A stretch of DNA of 24,000 nt from Butyrivibrio sp. WCD3002. Its GTDB lineage: Bacteria; Bacillota; Clostridia; Lachnospirales; Lachnospiraceae. The translations under genes and the position numbers were made by a program. Positions 1-14,548 of the stretch are shown here, in pieces (within the stretch, counting starts at the first letter, position 1; each line of letters starts with the position of its first letter). The stretch is from assembly GCF_000424265.1 (NCBI RefSeq), contig NZ_AUJO01000002.1, forward strand, positions 21,289-45,288, given 5' to 3'. The notes beneath the pieces were generated by a model. It saw only the letters and a list, made by a program, of their open reading frames with translations. It made no database searches and was not told where the DNA came from.

Positions 1-758
1 AGGGAGCTGTAACCGGTGACATAGGAGCCCTCGCCAAAGGTAAATGAAAGATAGTAGGACACATCATCCGCCGCATTCCTTACGCCCTGTACAATCCGAA
101 CACCCGCATCAACGACAGGCGTCCAGTCAATAGGTTTATTCCCCATGGGAAGAGCCAGTACGATAATCCCTACAATCGCGAAATAGTAAAAAGGAAAAGC
201 ATCTTCTCTAAGGGCGTATATCAGCTTTTGTAGTGCCGACAAGGTCAGAACAGTAAGGCAAATAAAAAGCAGCTTATCCGTATAATACTTTCCGCTAAAA
301 GCTTTCCATTCAAAGAAAAGGCATAGCGCTGCAATATCCAACACAAAGCATCCCCACAAAAGCACAAGCTCTTTTTTCCGTATAAAAGCAAACAGAACTC
401 TTAGGACAGCTGCCACAACAACTGCAATATCAAGGTATGGCCACGCTTCGTTATCCTTTAAAAGCGCAAATAGCAAAAGCGCAGGAAGTATATGAAAAAC
501 TGAAGATATGCTACTAATTATAAAAAATCCAAATAGGTACTCAAGCGCCGAGAAGAACAGGAAAAAGGAAATTACAGACATGATAAAGAAGCCTCTTTCA
601 AGGTCTGTTTCATTACCCTTGAGAAGCAAAAAAACTTCTGTGCATATACTTACAAGAGAAAGCACAAACAGATGAAGCCTAAGCTCATCAGCAAATAACG
701 AAGTGACTTTCTCCGGGCTTTGGATCTTCTCTGATGACGATCCTTGTATCCTGGGCAT
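1..758 (-). CDS. Polytopic membrane protein, N-terminal part only (runs off the window at position 1); possibly the transglutaminase-domain partner typical of MoxR/DUF58 operons
   Basis: The minus-strand frame is open from the window edge up to 758. It is absent from the ORF track because no stop lies inside the window. The translation (...LHLFVLSLVSICTEVFLLLKGNETDLERGFFIMSVISFFLFFSALEYLFGFFIISSISSVFHILPALLLFALL...) is a series of hydrophobic helices. The start is unresolved: ATG at 758 (71-nt overlap with the DUF58 gene), GTG at 665, or ATG at 581 (preceded by GAAAGAGG). The product guess rests only on the common MoxR-DUF58-transglutaminase gene order; no catalytic domain is visible here. 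Confidence 0.45.
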   Translation of the reverse strand, partial: MPRIQGSSSEKIQSPEKVTSLFADELRLHLFVLSLVSICTEVFLLLKGNETDLERGFFIMSVISFFLFFSALEYLFGFFIISSISSVFHILPALLLFALLKDNEAWPYLDIAVVVAAVLRVLFAFIRKKELVLLWGCFVLDIAALCLFFEWKAFSGKYYTDKLLFICLTVLTLSALQKLIYALREDAFPFYYFAIVGIIVLALPMGNKPIDWTPVVDAGVRIVQGVRNAADDVSYYLSFTFGEGSYVTGYSS

Positions 759-1755
759 AATCGCTGCTCCTTTTATCCTCTGTCATATTCATGAGTTCTT
801 CAAATTCTCTGTCCGATCTGTAGAATATGCCATCCGCTACCTGTCCGTAAAAATCAAGAAAACTATCATAGGAATCAACTGTGGCTTCTATGATTGTTCC
901 TGAAGGATAGATCAGTCTAACGGGAACACCCTGCTCTCCAAAATGCCAGGCAGCCGATACCGCAAATTCAAGGAAGAAATCCCGCTTTTTCAAAAATTCA
1001 ATATCCTGTTCTCTCTCAGGAACATTTGCTGCCTGCATCAAAATGGTAACTCTTCGCTTTTCCATCCTGTCAGGGACTCTTGTCATGAGTGTTCCAAGTC
1101 TTGCAGAAACCTTCCAATTGATAGAATTAAGGGCATCACCCTTTTGGTAGGATCTGATATCGCTCCCGGGAGCGTCCTCATAGATTTTGTTACTTTTAAG
1201 CCCGGTGCTGTTTATGAGATTTTCAAGCTCTAAAGCTGAGCTTGCCACATCCGTTATCTGCGGACTCACAACTGCTCTGAAGTTATATGGAATGTCAAAC
1301 TCCGCCGTAAAAATATTGAAGGGGTCCGTAAAAGCCACGCGCTTTATCCCTACATCATAGGATCCCGCATACTTACAGCTTATGCCTGAATTCAGTTCTT
1401 TTTTCTCATGGATATCAAGAGACAGACTCTGACCGTTTTCTATCTCATACAGATTGCATCTGTCATCATAGATGAACATTTGCATATTATGAACCGGGAG
1501 AAATCCCGCATTTTCGATTGTTGCCCTGTAGTTATGGTCCTCACCCCTGGTGAGCTTATGAACTTCTATTTCCTGGAAAATTCGAAGAAAGCGGAAATTC
1601 AGAAAAATATATACCGCAGAAAAAGGCACAAGAAGCAGTACTGCATAAAGCCATGCAAAAGAAACCGGACCTCCGTAAAAGCTTGCAAATACAAGGCTCG
1701 CTGCAACGACGATAAGATGTATGATCATGCCTTTTTTATTTACAGAAATATTCAT
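688..1755 (-). CDS. DUF58 domain protein (MoxR-associated, two N-terminal TM helices)
   Basis: 355-aa ORF whose start overlaps the stop of the upstream MoxR gene. The N-terminus has two hydrophobic helices. The DUF58 signature is recognisable in IRSYQKGDALNSINWKVSARLGTLMTRV (R-x-Y-x-x-G-D ... W-K-x-S-A-R). Confidence 0.8.
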   Translation of the reverse strand: MNISVNKKGMIIHLIVVAASLVFASFYGGPVSFAWLYAVLLLVPFSAVYIFLNFRFLRIFQEIEVHKLTRGEDHNYRATIENAGFLPVHNMQMFIYDDRCNLYEIENGQSLSLDIHEKKELNSGISCKYAGSYDVGIKRVAFTDPFNIFTAEFDIPYNFRAVVSPQITDVASSALELENLINSTGLKSNKIYEDAPGSDIRSYQKGDALNSINWKVSARLGTLMTRVPDRMEKRRVTILMQAANVPEREQDIEFLKKRDFFLEFAVSAAWHFGEQGVPVRLIYPSGTIIEATVDSYDSFLDFYGQVADGIFYRSDREFEELMNMTEDKRSSDYAQDTRIVIREDPKPGESHFVIC

Positions 1756-2675
1756 GGCACCTTCACTTGCTCAAGAATCTTTTTCACCAGATCCTCCTTT
1801 GTTACTCGGCTAAGTCTTGCCTGGGCTGAGAGGATCAGTCTGTGGGGAATTGTAAGTAATGCTGCTTCCGTAATGTCCTCGGGAATACAATAATTTCTGT
1901 CGTTTATGTAGGCGATTGCCTGTGCACACCTTAGCATGGAAAGAAGAGCCCTCGGGGATGCGCCGTAGGAAATCTCCGCTTTGTTCCTGGTGGCATCAAC
2001 GATATTTACCGCATAAGCTCTTAAGTTTTCATGAATTGTGACAGAGGCAGTCTCCTTTTTCATGGCAATTATGTCATCACCTGAAAGGACAGGGCTTGTC
2101 TCATCATGAAGATCGCCATCCAGGAAACGTCTCGCCATATCCTCAGATGCAGAGGCATCGGGATAACCAACAGAGAGCTTCATCATAAATCTGTCCAGCT
2201 GTGACTCGGGAAGCGGATAGGTTCCCGCCATTTCCGCAGGGTTCTGGGTTCCTATCACCATGAAAGGCAGCGGCACCGGAATCTCTTTTCCGTCAATCGT
2301 AACCTTATATTCTTCCATCACTTCAAGCAGTGCCGACTGGGTCTTGGGTGATGTTCTGTTAAGCTCATCTGCAAGAACAATGTTGTTTACTACAGGGCCG
2401 GGAACAACCGTAAACTTGCCATCTGCGGGGCTATAAACTGAAAGTCCCGTAATGTCCGAGGGCGTGGTATCAGGTGTACACTGTATCCTGGAAAAAGAAA
2501 CAGATAGCGAATCGGCAAGCGCCTTTGCAAGAGATGTTTTACCGACTCCGGGTACATCCTCAAGCAAAAGATGTCCGTCAGCCAAAACAGTGATAATGAT
2601 CTTATCGATCACATCACCCTTGCCGACTATACGCTGCTCCATGCTATCTTTAAGTCTCTTTGCCTTCTCGTTCAT
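1752..2675 (-). CDS. MoxR-family AAA+ ATPase
   Basis: Walker A is GVPGVGKT, Walker B is VLADELNR, and the sensor region is GASPRALLSML; length is typical of MoxR. The track ORF begins at a TTG (2708). The ATG at 2675 (MNEKAKRL...) is the more likely start. Confidence 0.85.
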   Translation of the reverse strand: MNEKAKRLKDSMEQRIVGKGDVIDKIIITVLADGHLLLEDVPGVGKTSLAKALADSLSVSFSRIQCTPDTTPSDITGLSVYSPADGKFTVVPGPVVNNIVLADELNRTSPKTQSALLEVMEEYKVTIDGKEIPVPLPFMVIGTQNPAEMAGTYPLPESQLDRFMMKLSVGYPDASASEDMARRFLDGDLHDETSPVLSGDDIIAMKKETASVTIHENLRAYAVNIVDATRNKAEISYGASPRALLSMLRCAQAIAYINDRNYCIPEDITEAALLTIPHRLILSAQARLSRVTKEDLVKKILEQVKVP

Positions 2676-2740
2676 AAGTTCCCCATCCTTTTCCCAAAAA
2701 AGCTGCAATATTCTAATATGATGGAATTTCCGGCGAGTCT

Positions 2741-3646
2741 CTATCTGTAAACAGGCTTCTGATTCTTTAATTCCTCGTAGATAATTCTGTAGTTATCGTA
2801 TCTTACCCTTGAGATTTCTCCCTTTTCCAGGGCGGTCTTTACGCCGCAGTCAGGCTCAGCGATATGACTGCATCCGCCAAATCTGCAGAAGGGTTCATAG
2901 GGCTCAAATTCAGTGTAATACTGTGGAAGTTCCTCCGCAGTGATATCCTTTAATGCCAGCGATGTAAATCCCGGTGTATCGAGGATATAGGTCTTCTCCT
3001 TATCATCTGAAAGTGCTGATACGAAGAACATCTCGGAATGTCTTGTTGTATTTCTTCCTCTTGCAATCTTCCTGCTAAGCTCCCCGGTCTCCATTTCAGC
3101 CTCAGGGTGAAGCTTATTAAGGAGAGACGATTTTCCAACGCCGCTTGGTCCAGCAACAACGGAAGTTTTTCCTCTGAGCTTTTCGCATAGCACATCAAGC
3201 CCCGCGCCTTCGTGTACACTTATGAAAATAACTTCATATCCGCATTTTTCATAGGCATCCATCAGCTCCTGCTGTTCTTCCTTTGTGGCTATGTCCTGCT
3301 TGTTAAAACAGATGATAACCGGCAGATTGTTTCGCCTCATCTGAATAAGGAACTTATCAAGAACGTTATAATTGGGATCCGGCTTTACTATTGCAAACAG
3401 AACAACCGCCTGGTCGACATTTGCGACCGGCGGTCTTATAAGCATGTTGCGGCGAGGCAAAATCTCGGTGATATTGCCTGTGCCGCTCTCTTCATCAATT
3501 ATCTCGATATTTACATCATCCCCAACGAGAGGCTTAATGCCGTCTTTTCTGAAAATACCTTTTGCCTTGCATTCATAGACGCGCTCGCTTCCGGTATTCA
3601 CATAATAAAAGCCGGCTATTCCTTTTACAATTCTCCCCTGCATCAA
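2741..3646 (-). CDS. rsgA: Ribosome small-subunit-dependent GTPase A (circularly permuted GTPase)
   Basis: Permuted G-motif order: NKQD (CFNKQD), then the P-loop GPSGVGKSSLLN, then DTPG. A C-terminal zinc knuckle is present (CRFGGCSHIAEPDCGV). The gene sits directly downstream of prkC, as in the conserved Firmicutes cluster. Confidence 0.9.
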   Translation of the reverse strand: MMQGRIVKGIAGFYYVNTGSERVYECKAKGIFRKDGIKPLVGDDVNIEIIDEESGTGNITEILPRRNMLIRPPVANVDQAVVLFAIVKPDPNYNVLDKFLIQMRRNNLPVIICFNKQDIATKEEQQELMDAYEKCGYEVIFISVHEGAGLDVLCEKLRGKTSVVAGPSGVGKSSLLNKLHPEAEMETGELSRKIARGRNTTRHSEMFFVSALSDDKEKTYILDTPGFTSLALKDITAEELPQYYTEFEPYEPFCRFGGCSHIAEPDCGVKTALEKGEISRVRYDNYRIIYEELKNQKPVYR

Positions 3647-5667
3647 TTCTCCTGAGTAAATGTAACTGCTCTTGTTACTGTGTACTCCTGCGTTGTTCCT
3701 TCGATAATGTTACCTTCAGCATCGGATGTGGCGGGAGTAGACGCCAGATACTTAAATGTTATAACACCTGTAGGAGACGTAAGTCCTGTTCTGCTTACAC
3801 CTGCAATCGGGAAAGAAGCAGTCTCTGTGTCAAGAAGTGATGTACCGTCAGCTGTCACAAAAGAAACATGAACGCTGATGCCATCAGTATAATTCTGACC
3901 CTCAGTAGGAGCTGCTATATCTCCTGAAAAAGCATAGGTTGTAGGGCTTGAAGGTCCTTTGGATTTCTCCATATTGATCTTGGTGCCCTTTTCAAGCATC
4001 GTTCCAACAGGCTGGCTCTGTGCTGTTATGGTGTCAACAGGATACTGCTCATTATTTACATCAATGATTGTTCCCTGAACAAGTCCTGCTTCTGCAAGGG
4101 CTGCAATAGCCTCATCTACAGAAAGGCCAACAAGATTAGGCATTGCTACCTGGTTGGATTCAGGCTCTTCCTCAGAGGAAGCCTCTTCTGCAGAATCGCT
4201 TGTTTCTGTACTTGCACTTGCAGAGGTCTCAGCATTTTTCTCTCCGCCTGTACTAACTGTGATGGTAACAGTTGAACCGCTCTCAGCAAATTCGCCTGCT
4301 TCCGGTGACTGTGAAACAACAGTATTCTTGGAAGCTGAACTGGTCTCATCATCAATCTTGGCTACCTGGAAGCCTTTGCTGTTAAGAATAGATACAGCCT
4401 GTGCATAAGACATGTTACCGCTTACGACATCAGGAACCTCTATTCCGTTCATAACATCGTTCGGATTATATTCACCTTCAAAAATAGTTACATCCGAATA
4501 ATCATCTGATCCAAATAATCCAATTCCCTTACCAACAAGGAAAATAACAATTACTCCCACAAGAACAGCAGCTACTATAGCAAGTGCGATGGTGATCTTC
4601 TCCATGCGGTTACCATACGCACCTGAATGTCTGTCGTACTCGTCCTCATCATCATCATAGTCGCCATTGTCATAGCCACGTCCTGATGAACCGCGTCTCT
4701 TCTGCTGTTCATACTCACGCATCACATCAGCATTAAGACGCATCTGCTCTGTGTCAGACATTCCGCCTATGCTCTTCTGCTCTGCCTCTGTGGCAACTCT
4801 TGTGGCGCTCTCTTCATCGGGATCCACAAGATTTACAAAATCATCATCAGGTGTGATAAGTGATCTCTTAAGGTCAGTTATAAGCTCTGCAGCATTCTGA
4901 TATCTTCTGTCAGGACTCTTCTGACAGCACTTCATAACTATCTTCTCAACACTGATAGGAATATCTTCGTTAAACTCAACCGGTGTGGGAAGGTCCTCCT
5001 GAATATGCTTTATGGCAATTGCAACAGTTGTATCCCCATTAAAGGGAAGACGTCCTGTAAGCATTTCAAAGAGTGTGATACCGAGTGAATATATATCACT
5101 CTTTGCATCCGAATAACCGCCTCTTGCCTGCTCAGGTGATGTGTAGTGAACAGATCCCATTACATTGGAGGTAATTGTGTTACTGGTGGCAGCTTTGGCA
5201 ATACCAAAATCTGTAACCTTAACCTTTCCTTCCTTTGAAATGATAATGTTCTGAGGCTTAATATCACGATGAATTATGTGATTATTGTGGGCAGCCTCAA
5301 GACCCATCGCCACCTGAATGGCAATACTGACAGCTTCCTTAACCGTAAGTCTTGATTTTTTCTCTATATATCTCTTAAGGGTGATGCCGTCAACAAGCTC
5401 CATTACTATGTAATGAATGCCGTTCTCATCACCTACATCATAGACATTAACAATATTGGGATGCATAAGGCCTGCAGCAGCCTGGGCCTCAACACGGAAT
5501 TTGGAGACAAAATTGTCGTTCTCCGAAAACTCCTGCTTAAGAACCTTAACCGCAACCGGTCTGTTCAATTTGTGATCTTTTGCTCTATAAACGTCGGACA
5601 TACCACCGGTTCCTATTTTTTCAAGGATCTCGTAGCGATCTCCGATCATCATTCCTATTTTTATCAT
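3643..5667 (-). CDS. prkC: PASTA-domain Ser/Thr protein kinase
   Basis: Hanks kinase motifs are present: IGTGGMSDVY, VAVK, HRDIKPQN, DFG. A TM helix follows (ITIALAIVAAVLVGVIVIFLV). The extracellular part has PASTA-like repeats (e.g. VAMPNLVGLSVDEAIAALAEAGL...). The gene overlaps stp upstream and rsgA downstream. Confidence 0.9.
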   Translation of the reverse strand: MIKIGMMIGDRYEILEKIGTGGMSDVYRAKDHKLNRPVAVKVLKQEFSENDNFVSKFRVEAQAAAGLMHPNIVNVYDVGDENGIHYIVMELVDGITLKRYIEKKSRLTVKEAVSIAIQVAMGLEAAHNNHIIHRDIKPQNIIISKEGKVKVTDFGIAKAATSNTITSNVMGSVHYTSPEQARGGYSDAKSDIYSLGITLFEMLTGRLPFNGDTTVAIAIKHIQEDLPTPVEFNEDIPISVEKIVMKCCQKSPDRRYQNAAELITDLKRSLITPDDDFVNLVDPDEESATRVATEAEQKSIGGMSDTEQMRLNADVMREYEQQKRRGSSGRGYDNGDYDDDEDEYDRHSGAYGNRMEKITIALAIVAAVLVGVIVIFLVGKGIGLFGSDDYSDVTIFEGEYNPNDVMNGIEVPDVVSGNMSYAQAVSILNSKGFQVAKIDDETSSASKNTVVSQSPEAGEFAESGSTVTITVSTGGEKNAETSASASTETSDSAEEASSEEEPESNQVAMPNLVGLSVDEAIAALAEAGLVQGTIIDVNNEQYPVDTITAQSQPVGTMLEKGTKINMEKSKGPSSPTTYAFSGDIAAPTEGQNYTDGISVHVSFVTADGTSLLDTETASFPIAGVSRTGLTSPTGVITFKYLASTPATSDAEGNIIEGTTQEYTVTRAVTFTQEN

Positions 5668-6407
5668 TCAGCTCCTCCGTCAGCAAATGGTTCTATCAAG
5701 ATAACGGCAATGTTGTCTTTACCGCCATGCTGGTTAGCCATATCAACCAACTTCTGTGCCTTCTCTATTATGTCTCTCTGCCCACTGACTATCATGCGAA
5801 TTTCCTCGTCCTCGAGCATATTTGTAAGCCCATCAGAACACATGAGCACAATATCCCCCTTCTCGAGTTCGACATTAAAGAAATCCACATCGACGCTATC
5901 ATCCGCACCTATGGCACGGGTAATAATATTCTTCTCCGCATGAGATCTGGCCTCATCCGGGGCGAGTCCGCCGGCACGTACCATCTCCTGAACCAGTGAA
6001 TGATCCCTTGTTATCTGTCTGATATTCTCTCCGATAACATAGAGTCTGGAATCACCTACATTAGCGACCTGCAAATACCTACCCATAACAGTGGCTGCCA
6101 CAACTGTAGTCCCCATTCCGTAAAGATGCTCATCTTCCGCTGCTTTAATCCTAAGCTTCTGATTAGCCTTCTTGATCGCATTCTCCAAAATGCGCACGGG
6201 GTTCTGTTCAAGAGACCTTTCAATCTCTTCTACCATAGTATTTACCGTATATTTAGATGCGTAGTCCCCGGCGTTGTGTCCGCCCATACCATCCGCAACA
6301 ATAAATACGTTAGAGAGATTCCCAATTCGTCTCTCGGAGGTAAACACGTAGTCTTGATTAAGTTTTCGTTTCTGACCCACGTCAGTTATTGAAAATGTTT
6401 TTAGCAA
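5664..6407 (-). CDS. stp: PP2C-family Ser/Thr phosphatase (Stp/PrpC)
   Basis: PP2C motifs are present: TDVGQKRKLNQD, ADGMGGH, SDGLT, GGKDNI. The track ORF extends to 6467. However, a TTG at 6407 lies 5 nt downstream of GGAGG (6417-6413 on the minus strand) and gives MLKTFSITDVGQ..., a typical length of about 247 aa. Confidence 0.85.
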   Translation of the reverse strand: MLKTFSITDVGQKRKLNQDYVFTSERRIGNLSNVFIVADGMGGHNAGDYASKYTVNTMVEEIERSLEQNPVRILENAIKKANQKLRIKAAEDEHLYGMGTTVVAATVMGRYLQVANVGDSRLYVIGENIRQITRDHSLVQEMVRAGGLAPDEARSHAEKNIITRAIGADDSVDVDFFNVELEKGDIVLMCSDGLTNMLEDEEIRMIVSGQRDIIEKAQKLVDMANQHGGKDNIAVILIEPFADGGAE

Positions 6408-6483
6408 GGATGCCTCCGATAAATTTTTTATTGGCATATATATTAGTAAGATATCGTTAAAAATCAATCTATGCCAATTAAAA

Positions 6484-7962: not shown

Positions 7963-8034
7963 TAAACGGACGCGAGAGGGGGATTCGATCTCCGCTCAAA
8001 ATATTTGGTAAACGGACGCGAGAGGGGGATTCGA
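7963..8034. repeat. Tandem duplication of an att-like/tRNA-3'-end-like 26-mer (two perfect copies, 46-bp period)
   Basis: taaacggacgcgagagggggattcga occurs at 7963-7988 and again at 8009-8034. Only the second copy continues as ...acc to complete the 20-nt core shared with the tRNA. Confidence 0.85.
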
Positions 8035-8037
8035 ACC
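8018..8037. repeat. attL core (direct repeat of the tRNA-Met 3' segment)
   Basis: Identical over 20 nt to 15807-15826; identity stops on both sides. Confidence 0.75.
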
Positions 8038-8094
8038 ACTTCTCGCTACGCAAATACCAGTAAAATAGCGGATGTTCATGATGTCACAGCCCAA

Positions 8095-8116
8095 ATGTAT
8101 TCAAAATGTATTCAAA
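8095..8116. repeat. Tandem ATGTATTCAAA x2 (candidate integrase arm-type sites, left arm)
   Basis: Two perfect 11-mers lie at 8095-8105 and 8106-8116. The same 9-mer core, TGTATTCAA, occurs twice in the same orientation at 15710-15729 near the other end of the element. Confidence 0.5.
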
Positions 8117-8161
8117 AAATCTAAGTCAGCTATCTACCGCACAGCGGAAAGATGCTGACTT
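8113..8161 (-). terminator. Intrinsic terminator after the 8167-8391 gene (hairpin usable on both strands)
   Basis: The stem is aagtcagc (8123-8130) / gctgactt (8154-8161). T-runs follow it on both strands (tattttttac on plus, agattttttg on minus). It lies 6 nt beyond the stop codon at 8167-8169. Confidence 0.55.
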
Positions 8162-8166
8162 ATTTT

Positions 8167-8391
8167 TTACATATTCATCACTGCTTCTTTAAGCTCATCC
8201 TCTGTCTTCACAAAGCTGTAAGGCTCATATTCTCCATACGCAGCTGGTCTGCTTATTGTAACAAGCTGTATTCTTTCCAATCCAACTTTTGAAATCAATT
8301 CTTTTTTTAAAGCTACAAGTGCCGGACCATGCTTTGTTTTATAAGCAATACAGCCTCGCTTATTTATATCTTTAGCTACAAGATAACACAT
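8167..8391 (-). CDS. Small hypothetical protein (74 aa)
   Basis: ORF with an ATG at 8391 (MCYLVAKDINKRG...), 10 nt downstream of GAGGAG. The longer track ORF (to 8439) lacks an RBS. No motif recognised. Confidence 0.5.
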   Translation of the reverse strand: MCYLVAKDINKRGCIAYKTKHGPALVALKKELISKVGLERIQLVTISRPAAYGEYEPYSFVKTEDELKEAVMNM

Positions 8392-8552
8392 TCTTAAGCA
8401 TCTCCTCAAAATCCAATAGTTGTATTGTATCCATAACAAAATCCTTATTTAGTGTTAGCTTTAATATATCATAGTCAGGTTTTTTCGACAATCAAGCCAT
8501 GACAGCTCATTACAATTTGAAATGTGTCTGATAATCAAGTACTGTAGAAAAT

Positions 8553-8572
8553 GATTATGACATGTCATAATC
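8553..8572. promoter_or_regulatory. Perfect 20-bp palindrome GATTATGACATGTCATAATC (candidate operator, two TATGACA half-sites)
   Basis: Exact dyad symmetry. The same outer arms (GATTATGACA ... TGTCATAATC) frame the 4-half-site array at 8629-8669. It lies in the intergenic region upstream of the 8391 gene. Confidence 0.5.
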
Positions 8573-8630
8573 CAGAAACACTCTATAATTCTTTACTAGA
8601 TGATCATTAAAATCCGCTTGTGAAGCCGAT

Positions 8631-8667
8631 TATGACACATTATGACATTGTCATAGCATGTCATAAT
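8631..8667. repeat. Left copy of a perfect 37-bp inverted repeat (TATGACA-cat-TATGACA-t-TGTCATA-gca-TGTCATA-at)
   Basis: tatgacacattatgacattgtcatagcatgtcataat. Its exact reverse complement lies at 9842-9878, including the asymmetric spacers. Confidence 0.9.
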
Positions 8668-8781
8668 CCGATATTTATGCATATTTCAACAATTAAAAGA
8701 AAATGTGTGTTGAAACAGAAATTATTTATGATAACACAATTTGCATGTAATTTTCAGTGGAAGTATGTAGATAATTAGTAT

Positions 8782-8822
8782 AAAAAATTCCCACTTCACG
8801 GATTTTATCCGCAGAGTGGGGG
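8782..8822 (-). terminator. Intrinsic terminator of the Big_2/hydrolase gene
   Basis: On the minus strand a 14-bp stem (cccac...gtggg, with one mismatch and two G-U pairs, 3-nt loop) is followed by AATTTTTTA. It starts about 10 nt after the stop at 8832-8834. Confidence 0.65.
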
Positions 8823-8831
8823 ATGAGTTTG

Positions 8832-9710
8832 TTATTCATATCTAGTTGCAATCCATTTTAAAGGATAAGAACCAACGGGTACGAATTCAGTATCACTTTG
8901 CTGAAGCCAGGAGGCTAATATTGTTGCTGATGTTATTTTATATTGTCTGCCCCATGCAACAGTACCGCCAACGTTTCCGTCCGCTGTTGTGACTATATCT
9001 CCATTTCGTGCAATAACTATTCCAGCATGAGGTCCAGCAGGTCCTACATAACCCACAACATCGCCAATCTTGATGTCGTATAGATTGTTGTGTCTGCGGA
9101 TGGGCGCTGTCACACCAAATACTGTGTCCTGAAGAAGCGCAGCAAATGCGCCACAAGCTACACATCTCTCATTGGTCGCTTCCCAAAAATATGTTTTATC
9201 CATACCCCAGGGTGTTCCATCAGGATACTGGGATTTCAGTGCCATAATTTTTGCCTGAGCTTCAGCTTCTGTGAGCTGAACAATTTCTTCTTTATCTGTT
9301 TCATATCCGCAGACTTTGCATTTCTTGCATTTGTATGCGCCATGTTCTGATGTTGCAGGAATAGTTGTTTCTACATATTTGTGCCGCTTGCAAAAGACTG
9401 AAAGCTGACACTTGTAGGTCTTGCCACCTACTTTAGCCTTGATGGTTGTCTTACCAGGCTTCTTGCCAGTTACGACACCCTTGTTTGAAACAGTGGCGAT
9501 CTTCTTTTTGGAAGAAGACCATTTGACTTTAGCGCCTTTAGCACCTTTGATTTTGAGCTTTGTGGTCTTTCCTACCTTGACTGATGCTTCTGTCTTGTTG
9601 AGTTTCACGGCAGCTTCAGCTGTTACGGGATTCATGATGCTGAGTGTGAGCGTGAGCATCAGGACAGAGAAGAGGCAGGAAAGCAGTGATTTGTTGTTTG
9701 CCTTTTTCAT
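8832..9710 (-). CDS. Secreted Big_2 domain / Cys-knuckle / papain-fold (NlpC-P60/CHAP-like) putative peptidoglycan hydrolase
   Basis: The RBS is GGAG, 9 nt before the ATG. Signal peptide: MKKANNKSLLSCLFSVLMLTLTLSIMNPVTAEA. Big_2-like segment: VKLNKTEASVKVGKTTKLKIKG...IATVSNKGVVTGKKPGKTTIKAKV. Cys cluster: CKRHK...CKKCKVCG. The C-terminal part has a candidate nucleophile Cys (ERCVACGAF) and a His (GPHAGIVIA) with GD/ADGN spacing, as in NlpC/P60-CHAP enzymes. Confidence 0.6.
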   Translation of the reverse strand: MKKANNKSLLSCLFSVLMLTLTLSIMNPVTAEAAVKLNKTEASVKVGKTTKLKIKGAKGAKVKWSSSKKKIATVSNKGVVTGKKPGKTTIKAKVGGKTYKCQLSVFCKRHKYVETTIPATSEHGAYKCKKCKVCGYETDKEEIVQLTEAEAQAKIMALKSQYPDGTPWGMDKTYFWEATNERCVACGAFAALLQDTVFGVTAPIRRHNNLYDIKIGDVVGYVGPAGPHAGIVIARNGDIVTTADGNVGGTVAWGRQYKITSATILASWLQQSDTEFVPVGSYPLKWIATRYE

Positions 9711-9788
9711 TGGTTATTTCTCCTTACATTCTGACAAGCAAACGTTGCTTATCAAAATTATATTTATCTTATTATTTTTATCTATATA

Positions 9789-9828
9789 AAAAGTAACCCA
9801 TTCCGGTGCTTCTTTTGGGTTACTTTTT
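9789..9828. terminator. 12-bp perfect hairpin with A/T-runs on both sides (possible bidirectional terminator/insulator)
   Basis: aaaagtaaccca (9789-9800) pairs with tgggttactttt (9816-9827) across a 15-nt loop. It lies between the right inverted repeat and the promoter region of the 9710 gene. Confidence 0.45.
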
Positions 9829-9841
9829 CATGATCAATGTC

Positions 9842-9878
9842 ATTATGACATGCTATGACAATGTCATAATGTGTCATA
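9842..9878. repeat. Right copy of the perfect 37-bp inverted repeat
   Basis: attatgacatgctatgacaatgtcataatgtgtcata is the exact reverse complement of 8631-8667. Confidence 0.9.
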
Positions 9879-10253
9879 CCAGAATAAGCAGCCCATACAG
9901 GTATATCCAAAGGGGTTACTTTTAAATAATTAACCCATATAGGGACACTAAAGGGGCTACTTATAATAAATAGCCCCTTTGGAGACCCTCATGTTGCATT
10001 ATTATATCACAGCGACAAGAATTAATAAATGCACGTCTTAACTTAATACAATGCATACCTTAATTTATATAGGTCCGTTAATTTATTTTTGATAGAGAAA
10101 CTTTTTATATTTGCATTTGTTATCCGGGCTACTTAGTGCACAATGAAGAAACTTTAGATAAATATGTTTACCACAATAAAATATTATTCTTGTACCAATG
10201 GTGCAGTCACCCATATAATAGAATGCGACATCAAATTAAGGAATGTAACATAA

Positions 10254-10712
10254 ATGAAAAGATGTACAGAATTATCAGTCGAGCAAATACTTAAAGAAAA
10301 GTGCATATCAATTGGAACAATCCCAAAAGAGATTGCAGAATTCATTACAACTAAAAAGCCTGATCTTCATATAGATACTACGTCAGAAATATCATTTTGG
10401 GATAATCGTATTACACATACTGAAAATCATAAAGATGATTTTATGTCCGATATAATGTATGACGATTGTTTCAGGTCAATTCCTGACTTCATCAAGAATC
10501 CTGATGTAATAAGTATAAAGAAAGACAACAGCAGCATTTCGTTTATTAAAAGGTTGACACAGGATATAAGTGTTGTTGTCAGGATCACTAACAAAGGAAC
10601 GTATTCTTATCGTACAATGTATCCGCTTATGTCAGCGCAGCTAGATAAATATCTAGCAGATGGCACAGCATGGGAATATCCCAAAAACGATATTGACTCA
10701 GAGAATGAATAG
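10254..10712 (+). CDS. Hypothetical protein; possibly a PBECR-type (phage Barnase-EndoU-ColicinE5/D-RelE-like) nuclease-fold protein
   Basis: 152-aa ORF with a weak RBS (AAGGAA, 10 nt upstream). A candidate promoter is TTGTAC-N18-TATAAT at 10190-10219. The motifs FWDNRITHTENHKDDF, then IPDFIKNPDVI, then a beta-rich tail resemble my recollection of PBECR domains. This is not verified. Confidence 0.4.
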   Translation: MKRCTELSVEQILKEKCISIGTIPKEIAEFITTKKPDLHIDTTSEISFWDNRITHTENHKDDFMSDIMYDDCFRSIPDFIKNPDVISIKKDNSSISFIKRLTQDISVVVRITNKGTYSYRTMYPLMSAQLDKYLADGTAWEYPKNDIDSENE

Positions 10713-10720
10713 GTTATAAT
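10693..10720 (+). promoter_or_regulatory. Near-consensus sigma-A promoter firing into a non-coding region
   Basis: TTGACT (10693-10698), a 16-nt spacer, then TATAAT (10715-10720). The -35 lies in the last codons of the upstream gene. No credible ORF follows for about 800 nt. Confidence 0.45.
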
Positions 10721-11103
10721 AAAATTACCAAGAGATAGAAGCTGAGGACGGAACAGGCAGCCGTCGCGCCCTTGTGGTCTTAAAATGAGATGCTGGATTG
10801 CCACCCAGCCTCTTCTATCTTAACGACAAAAAAGTTCCTATCTTCTGTAAATATGCAGAAAGACGAGGAGCTTTTTTGTTGCCTTTTTAACTGCTATGTT
10901 GCAATTATTATTGTTCACAAAAAATATCCATCGATATGCCAAAGGCATATTCTTATATCTTCTCTATTACATCACGGTTGTGATGTCAATTGTCTCCTTT
11001 TTTATCACGAGCGTGTGACCAACCATCCATCAGTAAGCCACACGCTGTACTGCGTTGTAACTATATATCGTCCACAATATATCTTTATTGTGATATCACC
11101 ACC

Positions 11104-11240
11104 ACTTAGAGTGCGTGACATGAGGGTGGTTCAAAACTTAGAGTCCACGATTGCTGAAACGCAGTAATACTGCCCATCTTCTCCAGAGACTTAGAGTCTC
11201 TAAGGCGACTTAGAGTTGAAAAAAGATGACGACTCTAAGT
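11104..11240. repeat. Iteron-like cluster of the 9-mer ACTTAGAGT (4 direct, 2 inverted copies)
   Basis: Direct copies lie at 11104-11112, 11136-11144, 11189-11197 and 11208-11216. An inverted full copy lies at 11232-11240, and an inverted core (ctctaag) at 11198-11204 abuts the third copy. Confidence 0.8.
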
Positions 11241-11469
11241 CACATAACGCAGACAGAATCTGGGCTTGAATAAAAAACACTCTCTGACCACATATAATGT
11301 GGTCCAAAACTAAAAGAGCATAAGAGTCAGCAACACACCCTAAAAATGCACAGCATTTTTGTGTGCTCGGCACAGCCGAGGCTGACCGTGACATTCGCTC
11401 TATTCGATGTGTATTCTGCACGTGATATTTTCCTTTTTTTCGCAACTCTAAAGCGTGCTATCTTTGTTT

Positions 11470-11488
11470 GCCCATTTTGAAAATGGGC
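11470..11488. promoter_or_regulatory. Perfect 19-bp palindrome GCCCATTTTgAAAATGGGC upstream of the DUF5688-like gene (candidate operator)
   Basis: Exact dyad. It lies about 50 nt upstream of the ATG at 11540 and next to A/T-rich -10-like hexamers. It has no flanking T-run, so it is not a terminator. Confidence 0.35.
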
Positions 11489-11539
11489 CGGTGGGAATAA
11501 TGAAACTAATAATAACATTTATCCAAAAGGAGGATAAAA

Positions 11540-12445
11540 ATGAACGCAATTACATTTAACGAAACAATCAAAACAAAAGTCTCAAACATTCTCGCTGCAA
11601 GGCATCTCGATGTAGATGTTAATGTTGAACATCTAACTAAGGCAAATGGTATTGAATATGATGCCTTAACTTTCACCGGAAAAGATATGCTTCAACCTGT
11701 GATCAATTTGAATCAGTTCTTCCATTCTTATCAGTGCCACGATTCTAATATTGATGATATTGCAAATGATATCGCAGATATATATGAAGAATCTTTCCTG
11801 CCAGATGACGATTACAAAGTAATCTTCAACTTTGAGCAGGTAAAGAATAAGATATTTCCCTGCCTGTATAACACGGCTATCAACAGCAAAATCAGTGACC
11901 AATATATTCATCGTGAATACTTAGACTTGTCAGTATATTATTATGTCACTCTACCTATCAAGAATGATGGATCTGGCACCATTCTTATCAGTAGGAAGTT
12001 GCTTGATCTCTGGAATATATCAATTGAGGAGTTGGATCAGACAGCCTTCAATAACCTTCATGTAAATAAACATCCTCAAATAACCTCTATGTATGATTTG
12101 TTCAAGGATGAAAATGATGAAAAAGATATATCATACATAGATGATCTGTCTCGCAATATGTTCATTCTTTCCTGTAAAAGTGATACCAACGGAGCTATAT
12201 ACATGACAGATACCGGAATATTAGACCAGCTTTCAAGTATGACTTCATCTGATTTAATAATTCTGCCTTCAAGCAGGCATGAGCTGATTGTCCTGCCATC
12301 ATATCTTATGAAATCACATGCTGAAATAAATGATTTCAGATCAATGGTACACGAAGTCAATTCAACTGTGCTTCGTCCTGAAGACTTCCTCTCTGACAAT
12401 GTATATTGCTATTCTGCAGAGGATCATGAACTTAATATAGCTTAA
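11540..12445 (+). CDS. DUF5688-like protein (family common on Clostridia mobile elements)
   Basis: Strong RBS: AAAGGAGG, 6 nt before the ATG. The N-terminal pattern (MNAITFNETIKTKV...VEHLTKANGIEYDALTF...PVINLNQFF) and the C-terminal LIILPSSRHELIVLP motif match my recollection of DUF5688. Function unknown. Confidence 0.55.
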   Translation: MNAITFNETIKTKVSNILAARHLDVDVNVEHLTKANGIEYDALTFTGKDMLQPVINLNQFFHSYQCHDSNIDDIANDIADIYEESFLPDDDYKVIFNFEQVKNKIFPCLYNTAINSKISDQYIHREYLDLSVYYYVTLPIKNDGSGTILISRKLLDLWNISIEELDQTAFNNLHVNKHPQITSMYDLFKDENDEKDISYIDDLSRNMFILSCKSDTNGAIYMTDTGILDQLSSMTSSDLIILPSSRHELIVLPSYLMKSHAEINDFRSMVHEVNSTVLRPEDFLSDNVYCYSAEDHELNIA

Positions 12446-12452
12446 TCCAAAA

Positions 12453-13505
12453 ATGATTGACCGAGCCTGGCGCACAGCGCTGGGCTCTGAAAGGATAATA
12501 ACAAAAATGTATAACGGAAAACTTAGACCTATAAGTTATGCAACACCATCCATTACAGATAAGGCTTACTATAAACCTGCTTTTTACAAGGATGAATTTG
12601 CTATGTACTATGACAATCATGGTGATTCTGAAGTCCTCAAAACTCCTCAAACCATATATGAATACCTTGATACGTACGTCTACGGGCATGACTACTATAA
12701 AAAGATGCTTTCTGTTTTTGTATGGAAATGCGTTAATAATCACCGACCTACCGGTGCTCTCCTAGTTGCAGGGCAATCAGGAAGTGGTAAGACAGAAATG
12801 ATCCGAGCTTTAAACGAGATATACGACAATATCTACATATGCGATGGTAGCAGCATCACGCCTCAAGGCTATAGGGGAAACAGTAAGCTTTATTCAGGAC
12901 TTCAAATGTTAGACATGACTAAGGATGCTCCTATGCCCATATGTGTTATAGATGAAGTCGATAAGCTCATTGACTGATCGCAGTCCGGATGGAATGGAAC
13001 CGGTTTGGTTGCTGAACTTTTAAAGCTCCTTGAAGGAGGCAATGTTAACATCGGTACTGAAGAAAAGCCTAAGATAATTGATACTTCAAGAATTGCCTTT
13101 ATTTTGCTTGGTTCCTTCTCTTGCCTTGATAAAAAACATGCATCTTCACCAATAGGCTTTTCTACAGAAAATAGCGAGAAAAAATCAACATCCTTAAATA
13201 GAGATGAAGTACTAGCCATGATTCCGCCTGAGCTGAAAGGTCGAATTGAGCAGACTATCATCCTGGATAACTTTAGTGAGGATGACTATTTCAAGATAAT
13301 GAAAGATGAGAGATATTCGCCCATTAAACGGATAGAGCGCGAATTTAGTATATCTATTTCCATATCCAACGAAAAAGTCAAAAAGATATCTCAGGATGCC
13401 TTTCTCAATAAAACAGGTGTCAGAAGCATGAATAATGAAATCAATGAATTTGTGAACCAGCAATTTTTTGAGAATCCTTCTGTAAAAAAGATACAGATGG
13501 ATTAA
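12453..13505 (+). pseudogene. ClpX-like AAA+ unfoldase lacking the N-terminal Zn-binding domain, interrupted by one in-frame TGA (12975-12977)
   Basis: The two track ORFs (12453-12977 and 13005-13505) are in the same frame. Read through the TGA, they align colinearly with ClpX. TPQTIYEYLDTYVYGHDYYKKMLSVFVW matches [28 protein letters not shown]. Walker A is GQSGSGKT, the pore loop is GYRG (ClpX has GYVG), and Walker B is VIDEVDK. After the stop, GLVAELLKLLEG matches GVQQALLKLIEG, DTSRIAFILLGSF matches DTSKILFICGGAF, SPIGFS is the IGF loop, IPPELKGRI matches IPEFIGRL, and KTGVRSM matches KTGARGL. The second half has no ATG start. The start of the first half is uncertain (12453 or 12507). Confidence 0.7.
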
Positions 13506-13519
13506 GGAGGCAGAATATA

Positions 13520-13876
13520 ATGGAACTTGCTTTAAAATACGATAATAACCGAATAACAGATGTTCATATCGCTCCTACCAAGGAAGAAAATGTGAAGCAG
13601 CTGTATGATCTATCTCAGGAACTACTAATAAAAAATCCAGCTGTTGAATTTGCAGATAAAGCTAAAGCGGGAAAATTCAATACCTTGTCTGAGGATGAAT
13701 ACTCATATGCCTTAGATGAAATAGCGGCTATCAATCAACTGTTCTACTGTACTGATGAGCCAAACAAACAACTAGCAGAAATTAACATTTTCCTACTGCT
13801 TGAAAGATTACTTCTTGCATATTTGAGGCATATTGAAATCTATATAAGAGATGTAAAAGTATTTAAGCGTTTGTAA
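13520..13876 (+). CDS. Hypothetical 118-aa protein, third gene of the DUF5688/ClpX-like module
   Basis: Strong RBS: AAGGAGG, 9 nt before the ATG. It starts 14 nt after the ClpX-like stop. It looks predominantly helical and acidic, with no recognised motif. Confidence 0.6.
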   Translation: MELALKYDNNRITDVHIAPTKEENVKQLYDLSQELLIKNPAVEFADKAKAGKFNTLSEDEYSYALDEIAAINQLFYCTDEPNKQLAEINIFLLLERLLLAYLRHIEIYIRDVKVFKRL

Positions 13877-14548
13877 ATCCAAAATTCATGCTTTAGCATT
13901 GTCTGTAAAATTTGGTAATTTTTACCAACAGCTGCCATATTAATATAATATATAGCGCTTTGGTTATCCTTCACGAAATTTTAGAATTGCTGTAAATATC
14001 GTTGATTTAGTATGTTCTCTATGCGTACAATTAATGTTGAGATATAAAAAAAACACTAGGAGGTATATAAATACGTCTAGGGACGACGACGGTTCCCCTT
14101 CCGCTTGATTCGCACAGGGCGGATGGATCTGCTGTAAAAAAACAGTAATAGATCTTCGCAATTGTTGATATGGCTTAGTGCTGGATGTGCCACATTAGGA
14201 CGTCGTATATTTATACGCATGTGGGAAACCGCTAATAGATATCTGAATCAGTATCTATTTTGCACAGAAACCGACAGACTAATTACATAGCCTGCTAACC
14301 ACCCGAACCAGCACAGTTGCAGAACCAAAGTGTAGTATCGCGTGTTAGTGACGCATGCTGACAATAAACCTTCTGTAGCTGTGCGTGTGTATATCAGGGT
14401 GGTTTTGTTTTGGATCCTGTTTTTTATAGGAAGGATTATTATGGCTGATAAGGATTCCATAATGCCAGAATTAGCGGAGATTGAATATTACTTTAGAATT
14501 GGAATAATACAAATTGATGACATCATGAACTCCGACAAGGAGATAATC

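Follow-up and report, generated by a model that had tools for sequence, protein, structure and literature searches.

A nonsense-interrupted ClpX-like ATPase gene in a tRNA-Met integrative island of Butyrivibrio

Can a small integrative element carry a ClpX of its own, so altered that it would present a different set of substrates to the protease of its host? The question is raised by a 24,000-nucleotide stretch of DNA from Butyrivibrio sp. WCD3002 (here called the window), in which a gene for a ClpX-like AAA+ ATPase lies inside an integrative island. A preliminary description, made from the sequence alone, had taken the product for a ClpX homolog that lacks the zinc-binding domain (ZBD) and can still dock on host ClpP. 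We now find that the gene is interrupted by a stop codon in this strain and that intact relatives of it recur with fixed partners in other islands. The window, we believe, is likely to hold a nonsense-inactivated allele of an island-borne ClpX variant without ZBD, a variant that would have altered specificity and use host ClpP but that is dead in this strain.

The nearest known family of the ATPase is ClpX, as judged by sequence, profile and fold. The gene (12507..13505, plus strand, 332 codons) was delimited from its translation, from matches to ClpX in NCBIfam and in the Protein Data Bank (PDB), and from the start found in a set of homologs; gene coordinates and residue numbers count from the Met codon at 12507. 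Its product is 95% identical to P0001, an intact Butyrivibrio protein. Pfam detects only AAA_2 and AAA. The best NCBIfam matches are ClpX models, NF003745 at 102.4 bits and TIGR00382 at 97 bits, with ClpA (43 bits), HslU (40.7 bits) and ClpB (25 bits) trailing; the two ClpX scores fall short of the equivalog cutoffs of 359 and 370.75 bits, respectively. When the single sequence was searched against PDB, ClpX chains led (E ~5e-19). With a family profile built from 36 sequences of intact members, the match to ClpX ran unbroken over the full length, at 124.6 bits (E 4.6e-35). HslU came second in the profile comparison. It is likewise a single-ring Clp-type AAA+ ATPase without ZBD, but its score was only ~86-90 bits and fell in two separate stretches because HslU carries a large I-domain insertion, and it docks on HslV by its C-terminal tail and not by an IGF loop; the D2 modules of ClpC and ClpA reached at most 52 bits. 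Finally, an AlphaFold2 (AF2) model of an intact homolog (pLDDT 84.6, pTM 0.81) was compared with PDB by Foldseek, and the best 50 matches were all ClpX. The preliminary description was thus right to place an AAA+ module of the ClpX family on a small integrative element. A placement with MoxR, RuvB or other non-Clp AAA+ proteins is ruled out, for the ATPase has no Pfam match to AAA_3, AAA_5 or RuvB_N, models that the true MoxR gene of the window (1752-2708) does match, and every fold match is to ClpX.

Like ClpX, members of the family consist of a single AAA+ module with a large and a small domain, and the alignment with ClpX spans the full module. Pairwise identity among 36 intact members, the set to which all loop counts below refer, is only 41-58%, and across this set Walker A, Walker B, the Arg finger and the sensor-2 Arg do not vary. 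In the window (all on the plus strand), Walker A is GQSGSGKT (12771..12794; the family keeps G-x-S-G-x-G-K-T-E with little or no variation) and Walker B is VIDEVDK (12945..12965; its D, E, D and K are invariant). The spacing of only ~50 residues between the two leaves no room for an I-domain insertion of the HslU type. Downstream come LLKLLEG (13017..13037, read from the frame 1 translation), the Arg-finger motif GRI (13239..13247), which aligns with IGRLP of ClpX and in which G, R and I are invariant in all 36 members, and the sensor-2 motif TGVRSM (13413..13430), which aligns with KTGARGL of ClpX and contains an invariant R. The motifs listed in the preliminary description are all present in frame 1 of 12453-13505, although the frame itself is not the single open one that had been assumed, in that it contains a TGA.

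The specificity of ClpX is normally ascribed to three parts, namely the zinc-binding domain, the RKH loops and the GYVG pore loops, and all three are lost or changed in the family. No match to zf-C4_ClpX (PF06689) was found by Pfam, the first 60 residues contain no Cys, and the CxxC...CxxC pattern carried by canonical ClpX sequences is absent from the family members checked; the family has instead a short N-terminal P-F-Y motif that is nearly invariant. The pore-1 loop (12867..12878, plus strand) occupies the same position as GYVG of ClpX in both the single-sequence and the profile alignment. Its aromatic residue is present in all 36 members and is followed by K or R in 35, with K at the third position in 29, R in 6 (as in the window) and V in 1. 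Hence the GYRG to which attention had been drawn is an allele-level variant, the family norm being GYKG. At the RKH-loop position the window reads GTEEKPK (13053..13073, plus strand), and this segment is 12-13 residues long in the family and devoid of RKH, as compared with 19 residues, including GGRKH, in canonical ClpX. The pore-2 segment is similarly reduced, to 12-14 residues from 19, a shortening of 5-7 residues.

What has been kept is the docking loop. The IGF tripeptide (13152..13160, plus strand; 3' of the stop in the window copy) lies in a loop homologous to the IGF loop of ClpX: SSPIGF aligns with GSGIGF (of GSGIGFGA) in E. coli ClpX whether a single sequence or the profile is used, and in neither alignment does it fall outside the equivalent loop. 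Its I is conserved in 33 of the 36 members and its G and F in all of them, and in the AF2 model it sits within a low-confidence, unstructured and flexible stretch (residues 210-231). Given these loop alignments and the conservation across 36 members, the anatomy proposed in the preliminary description (no ZBD, an altered pore-1 loop, no RKH, a retained IGF) is correct for the family. The family nonetheless differs from ClpX in being only ~25-29% identical to it and below the equivalog cutoffs, and the window gene differs further in being borne on an island, with a DUF5688 gene beside it instead of clpP and tig, and in being pseudogenized.

The interruption is an in-frame TGA at codon 157 (12975..12977, plus strand). 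It stands directly 3' of DEVDKLID, between Walker B and the pore-2/sensor-1 region, and splits a module that is complete in the family, including the small domain. A mechanical list of open reading frames (ORFs) accordingly gives two for the gene, 12453-12977 (174 amino acids) and 13005-13505 (166 amino acids). The TGA is private to this strain. Codon 157 is AGA (Arg) in the three other alleles that we compared with the window, those of a metagenome contig (L018; 97.8% identical in nucleotide sequence), Butyrivibrio sp. VCD2006 (L008) and Butyrivibrio sp. JL13D10 (L009), and therefore the window differs by a single A-to-T change; Arg or Lys is found at this position in 35 of the 36 family members. 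TGA also serves as the terminator of 6 of the 14 long window ORFs that we tabulated. It is therefore a genuine stop in this organism, and the window copy is a recent nonsense mutant. Recoding of the TGA, whether by genetic code 4 or 25 or as selenocysteine, is ruled out by the same use of TGA as a terminator and by the Arg or Lys of the homologs.

Because the TGA falls between Walker B and the pore-2/sensor-1 region, the window copy cannot make a full-length ATPase. Its truncated product would end after Walker B and would be missing sensor-1, the IGF loop, the Arg finger and the small domain. The statement that the protein can still dock on host ClpP therefore does not hold for this copy, however well it may suit the family. 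Over the whole gene the window and the VCD2006 allele differ by 28 synonymous and 14 nonsynonymous codons, in a ratio of 9:3 before the stop and 19:11 after it. No relaxation is obvious downstream, and this makes the lesion a recent one, unless it is an error of sequencing, as it may be. As far as can be judged from the reading frame, the gene is best called a pseudogene in this strain, with a nonfunctional ATPase, and as a practical matter it should be annotated as a recent pseudogene.

The gene also begins later than had been supposed. Homologs, including the closest intact one, start with MYNGKLR, which corresponds to 12507 in the window. The 18-codon extension that would result from a start at 12453 is out of frame in two of the four alleles because the length of a run of A residues differs. 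A start at 12453, as given in the preliminary description, lies 54 nucleotides too far upstream and is ruled out by this comparison of frames. In the 61-nucleotide spacer between the DUF5688 gene and the ATPase gene we also noted, by reading the sequence, a GC-rich hairpin, GAGCCTGGCGC-ACA-GCGCTGGGCTC (12463..12487, plus strand). It has no T-tract, is broadly kept in the three other alleles and, on its appearance in the sequence, may be an element of mRNA processing, stability or attenuation.

The element that carries the gene is a 7.8-kb island (8018-15826) integrated into a tRNA-Met gene. That gene (CAT anticodon; 15804..15878, minus strand) was identified with ARAGORN and by Rfam (tRNA, 61.6 bits). 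The attR core, a 20-bp direct repeat inside its 3' end (15807..15826), is an exact GCGAGAGGGGGATTCGAACC, and the attL core at the left end of the island (8018..8037) is an exact copy of the same sequence. A tyrosine integrase gene is located next to the tRNA gene (14441..15745, plus strand; Phage_integrase E 3e-22, phrog_1 E 3e-47), the 434-amino-acid form of which fits the annotation of its homologs. Similarity to two other Butyrivibrio strains, at 89-93%, is confined to ~8018-15925, with a left start at 8018-8025, and the flanks differ; the island block is more AT-rich than the left flank. A locus scan with the ATPase as a single protein returned matches in only two Butyrivibrio genomes, and an island of the same type is located at a tRNA gene in Butyrivibrio sp. 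JL13D10. The order of genes in the island is DUF6718, a secreted Big_2 protein, a PBECR-type nuclease, a skipping-rope RNA, DUF5688, the ATPase, a 118-amino-acid protein and the integrase.

Three of these genes, DUF5688, the ATPase and the one for the protein of ~118 amino acids, form a cassette, the constant core of small integrative islands that are found in Lachnospiraceae of the rumen and gut. Our counts are taken over eight distinct island contexts of divergent family members. The DUF5688 gene (11540..12445, plus strand, in the window; PF18941 E 6.8e-67) adjoins that for the ATPase in seven of the eight, once in inverted order (L015), so that the linkage survives inversion. A homolog of the small protein, ~116-125 amino acids in length, is encoded downstream in six; in the window its gene is at 13520..13876 (plus strand), and blastp places its homologs after the ATPase, or after the pair, in L006, L007, L014, L015 and L016. 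The 118-amino-acid protein has no Pfam, PHROG or PADLOC match. A second small protein, of ~125 amino acids and with the motifs NYPASL...MFNRTI, is encoded upstream in five of the eight contexts and was not found in the window by tblastn. In L003 (8642-9010), and also in L004 and L005, this upstream gene is split into two 47-amino-acid ORFs beside an Ssp-like phosphorothioation cluster, and thus decay of cassette genes is seen in other islands too. The ATPase is the most conserved component, at 40-66% identity, followed by DUF5688 (26-66%) and the small protein (25-36%). It is therefore hardly the unusual cargo that it had seemed, being the best-conserved gene of a cassette that recurs.

Around this constant part the islands vary. 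Their recombinases are of the tyrosine or the serine type. Neighbors of the cassette include type I restriction-modification (R-M) systems, in one case with an McrB-like gene and in another with AbiEii, as well as an Ssp-like phosphorothioation cluster, transglutaminase/zinc-ribbon sets and Fic with ArdC-N. In none of the eight neighborhoods did we find clpP, as judged by the CLP_protease Pfam family. As for DUF5688 itself, AF2 predicts its structure with confidence (pLDDT 91), its fold matches no solved or viral structure, no protease-like family or fold was detected for it, and no mention of it was found in the literature searched. It carries an invariant I-L-P-S-S-x-H-E motif. A 185-amino-acid protein takes its place in L016, and the notion that this is a divergent DUF5688 is ruled out by an hhalign probability of 0.4.

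How might an intact member of the family act? Docking on ClpP and altered specificity are both plausible, to judge from the loops. Most likely, the intact protein would form a hexamer that would dock by its IGF loops on the ClpP of the host, which we assume Butyrivibrio to possess from general knowledge of Firmicutes, and it would feed that protease a specialized and narrow set of substrates. In place of the missing ZBD and RKH loops, choice of substrate would be made by the altered GY[K/R]G pore-1 loop, the shortened pore-2 loop and the N-terminal P-F-Y motif, and DUF5688 and the small protein would probably serve as adaptor or substrate. In this strain the pathway would have been broken by the change of Arg157 from AGA to TGA, A having been replaced by T. 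Hydrophobic-Gly-Phe loops at this position are the known signature of ClpP binders among the Clp/Hsp100 ATPases.

What the cassette would achieve in this way is the weakest step of the account. The likeliest role, in our opinion, is to help the element establish itself in a new host, or survive conflict there, by targeted proteolysis. We favor establishment or conflict because the cassette is constant beside variable cargo that is often concerned with defense and because DUF5688 is also found among the establishment genes of a conjugative element. There is a precedent of a kind in E. coli, in which ClpXP degrades HsdR and so allows type IA and type IB R-M systems to enter a new host; the degradation of restriction enzymes by ClpXP homologs encoded by mobile genetic elements has been listed among activities that are envisioned but have not yet been found (PMC12707154). 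In its most specific form, to which we give only a low probability, the proposal would be that intact members commandeer host ClpP, with DUF5688, the 118-amino-acid protein or both as adaptor, and degrade particular nucleases or toxins, whereby the element would make sure of its establishment once transferred. Possible targets are the restriction enzymes of the recipient, in which case the cassette would practice anti-restriction by proteolysis. Alternatively, they could be R-M or toxin cargo that has newly arrived with the island itself, and the element would then provide its own restriction alleviation.

Several observations tell against this account. DUF5688 is found in more than 150 clusters as compared with ~36 for the ATPase, and some of its genes have no ATPase gene beside them: one is an orphan, and another lies in a conjugative element, with a gene for a giant SNF2 helicase on one side and genes for Toprim, RadC and a relaxase on the other. 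Conversely, DUF5688 is missing from the L016 context, where the ATPase is present, and the two genes are thus facultative partners. A mirror-tree comparison of DUF5688 with the ATPase gave mixed coefficients for co-divergence, a Pearson value of 0.65 that rests on one close pair and a Spearman value of -0.10. The IGF loop could dock on a partner other than ClpP. R-M genes are absent from the Butyrivibrio island, the cargo of which is the PBECR nuclease, the skipping-rope RNA and the secreted Big_2 protein, so that not every context is compatible with a role specific to restriction enzymes. Finally, the TGA could have entered the source assembly through a sequencing error.

Of the alternatives, the one that survives best, as a possibility that we regard as unlikely, is that the cassette is itself an anti-phage defense system composed of a Clp-type ATPase and its partners and comparable to Dodola. 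The presence of type I R-M, McrB-like, Ssp-like phosphorothioation and AbiEii genes next to the cassette is the layout of a defense island. Dodola, too, is a small multigene module that is found near defense genes and includes a Clp-like ATPase (DolB), the mechanism of which is unknown (PMC11514479), and PADLOC returned weak matches to DolB and to the candidate system PDC-M37B. These matches, however, span only ~60-140 residues around Walker A, at E values of 1e-7 to 1e-13, as expected from generic Clp similarity. The DolB match in particular is confined to the Walker A half and covers ~60 of 375 profile positions (E 1e-6 to 1e-8). The partner proteins of the cassette differ from those of Dodola, no DolA-like partner is present near the cassette ATPase, and its neighbors have no PADLOC match. 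Moreover, the cassette remains constant while the defense genes beside it change, which is the behavior of an element's backbone and not of its cargo, and the occurrence of DUF5688 among transfer and establishment genes of a conjugative element points the same way.

We consider it less likely again that the intact family works without ClpP, either as a stand-alone remodeler or with the IGF loop docked on a co-encoded partner such as a DUF5688 oligomer, in an arrangement resembling HslUV. ClpX is known to disassemble the Mu transpososome as a stand-alone remodeler, and complexes of the island recombinase could be remodeled by the ATPase in like manner. A gene that is adjacent in seven of eight contexts, with a linkage that outlasts inversion, follows a pattern typical of physically interacting pairs; the DUF5688 product is predicted to fold confidently into a form without a solved relative, and its I-L-P-S-S-x-H-E motif, being invariant, could be catalytic. 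Against this stand the hydrophobic-Gly-Phe loop, the signature of ClpP binders, and the failure to detect a protease-like family or fold for DUF5688. Most DUF5688 genes, in addition, occur without the ATPase, and the L016 ATPase occurs without DUF5688.

Least likely of the three is that the gene is functional in this strain, the TGA being an assembly or sequencing error or being read through in useful amounts: the TGA is indeed the sole lesion, with no frameshifts, the 175 codons 3' of it remain open with mostly conservative changes and a 19:11 ratio that does not clearly signal relaxation, and the neighboring cassette genes are all intact, but three independent alleles have AGA, TGA is a normal terminator in this genome, nothing at the TGA suggests selenocysteine, since homologs carry Arg or Lys there, translation could restart in frame only at a TTG (13005), before which no ribosome-binding site is evident, and a protein split within the alpha/beta core would not be expected to assemble.

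The reading that we prefer, a ClpX variant that would use host ClpP, can also be set beside other ClpX-like proteins. ClpX-like ATPases, some of them without ZBD, are encoded in metagenomes and in metagenome-assembled genomes of Myxococcota, where they carry the annotation ClpX, and their role is unknown. Jumbo phages encode ClpX as well, examples being the Lak phages and gp258 of Bacillus phage G, again with an unknown role (PMC7824862, PMC12707154). These proteins differ from the present family in being only ~26-29% identical to it, and none is linked to DUF5688. The example that we examined, P0052, has an RKH region and a pore-2 loop (GEGVQQ) of the same length as those of ClpX, and a pore-1 loop GYYG. 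In the literature searched we found no description of a ClpX that lacks the ZBD, bears IGF and is carried on a mobile element. A plasmid or phage origin for the family is unsupported: no members were found in PLSDB (plasmids) or INPHARED (phages), in which only canonical ClpX appeared, at ~27%, and IMG/VR yielded no relatives for the two subclades searched.

The family proves to be part of something larger. When its profile was searched against 1.84 billion cluster representatives, 1,138 of them matched at an E value of 1e-30 or better, and the best 150 scored 170-467 bits, above the score of E. coli ClpX with the same profile. The 141 members of this best set that were aligned (the basis of the counts that follow) mostly have loops of a similar kind. 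About 129 have hydrophobic-Gly-Phe at the IGF position (IGF in 82, LGF in 21, FGF in 9, MGF in 7 and VGF in 7), and their pore-1 loop is G[W/Y/F][K/R/S]G, with V rare at the third position. The region before Walker A has a median length of 179 residues (range 1-757), and only 4 of the 141 contain CxxC...CxxC; no Pfam domain was detected in the N-terminal extensions of ten long members. One protein of the clade set P0241-P0384, P0248 (1238 amino acids), apparently contains three tandem AAA modules. From PADLOC came only weak, partial matches to DolB. Thus, from the profile matches and the conserved loops, the family of the window ATPase is one branch of a sizeable and essentially unannotated radiation of ClpX-like ATPases; both the family and the larger clade are annotated only as "AAA family ATPase."

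In this family, then, a natural lineage has lost or changed all three parts to which ClpX owes its specificity, has strictly kept the docking loop and has become mobile with fixed partners. Should intact members indeed work with host ClpP, they would exemplify the re-targeting of a host protease by a mobile element, a strategy well known in eukaryotic viruses. If, further, they commandeer ClpP to degrade nucleases or toxins, the clade of 1,138 clusters could represent a broad and unrecognized class of conflict-dedicated adaptor-unfoldases for ClpP. The family and the wider clade merit experimental attention on these grounds; the window itself offers a dead allele.

We turn to the remaining contents of the island. 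A skipping-rope RNA motif (RF02924) is present at 10737-10816 on the plus strand, with an Rfam score of 55.9 bits against a gathering threshold of 36.7, and again in the JL13D10 island (L009 8235-8314). The PBECR-family nuclease gene (10254-10712) ends 25 nucleotides 5' of it. Also located by the RNA are a near-consensus promoter, TTGACT-16-TATAAT (10693-10720), and a terminator-like hairpin (10792-10809). Skipping-rope RNAs have been described as orphans that occur near a particular protein in either orientation and whose function is unknown (Weinberg et al. 2017; PMC5737381). The arrangement in the window suggests that the RNA and the nuclease form an RNA-protein unit of a toxin-antitoxin-like kind. 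The motif is absent from the cassette loci L003, L006, L007 and L010; it is present only in the Butyrivibrio islands, beside the PBECR gene, and is ruled out as a part of the cassette.

The left part of the island has a history of its own. Its leftmost 670 bp (8025-8693, corresponding to L008 5259-5927), which contain the DUF6718 gene (8167-8439, minus strand), are 99.7% identical to the sequence of VCD2006, as compared with ~89-90% for the rest, and this mosaic suggests recent recombination or exchange of the left segment. The gene for the secreted Big_2-domain protein (8832-9710, minus strand) is flanked by inverted repeats of 37-39 bp, 97-100% identical, at 8629-8667 and 9841-9878. The repeats recur at matching places in the VCD2006 and JL13D10 islands, and they may mark the boundaries of a small cassette or be a pair of terminators.

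Finally, we note two features outside the island. Just beyond attR, a gene for an alpha/beta-hydrolase of the BD-FAE/esterase type (16284-16740, plus strand) appears to be broken into a 113-amino-acid N-terminal ORF (16284-16625) and an overlapping 64-amino-acid ORF in another frame (16546-16740) that resembles a C terminus. It is probably a second pseudogene beside the island. On the other side, the host flank at 688-6467 (minus strand) encodes a DUF58 protein, a MoxR-type ATPase, RsgA, a PASTA-domain Ser/Thr kinase and a PP2C phosphatase, an ordinary set of housekeeping genes.

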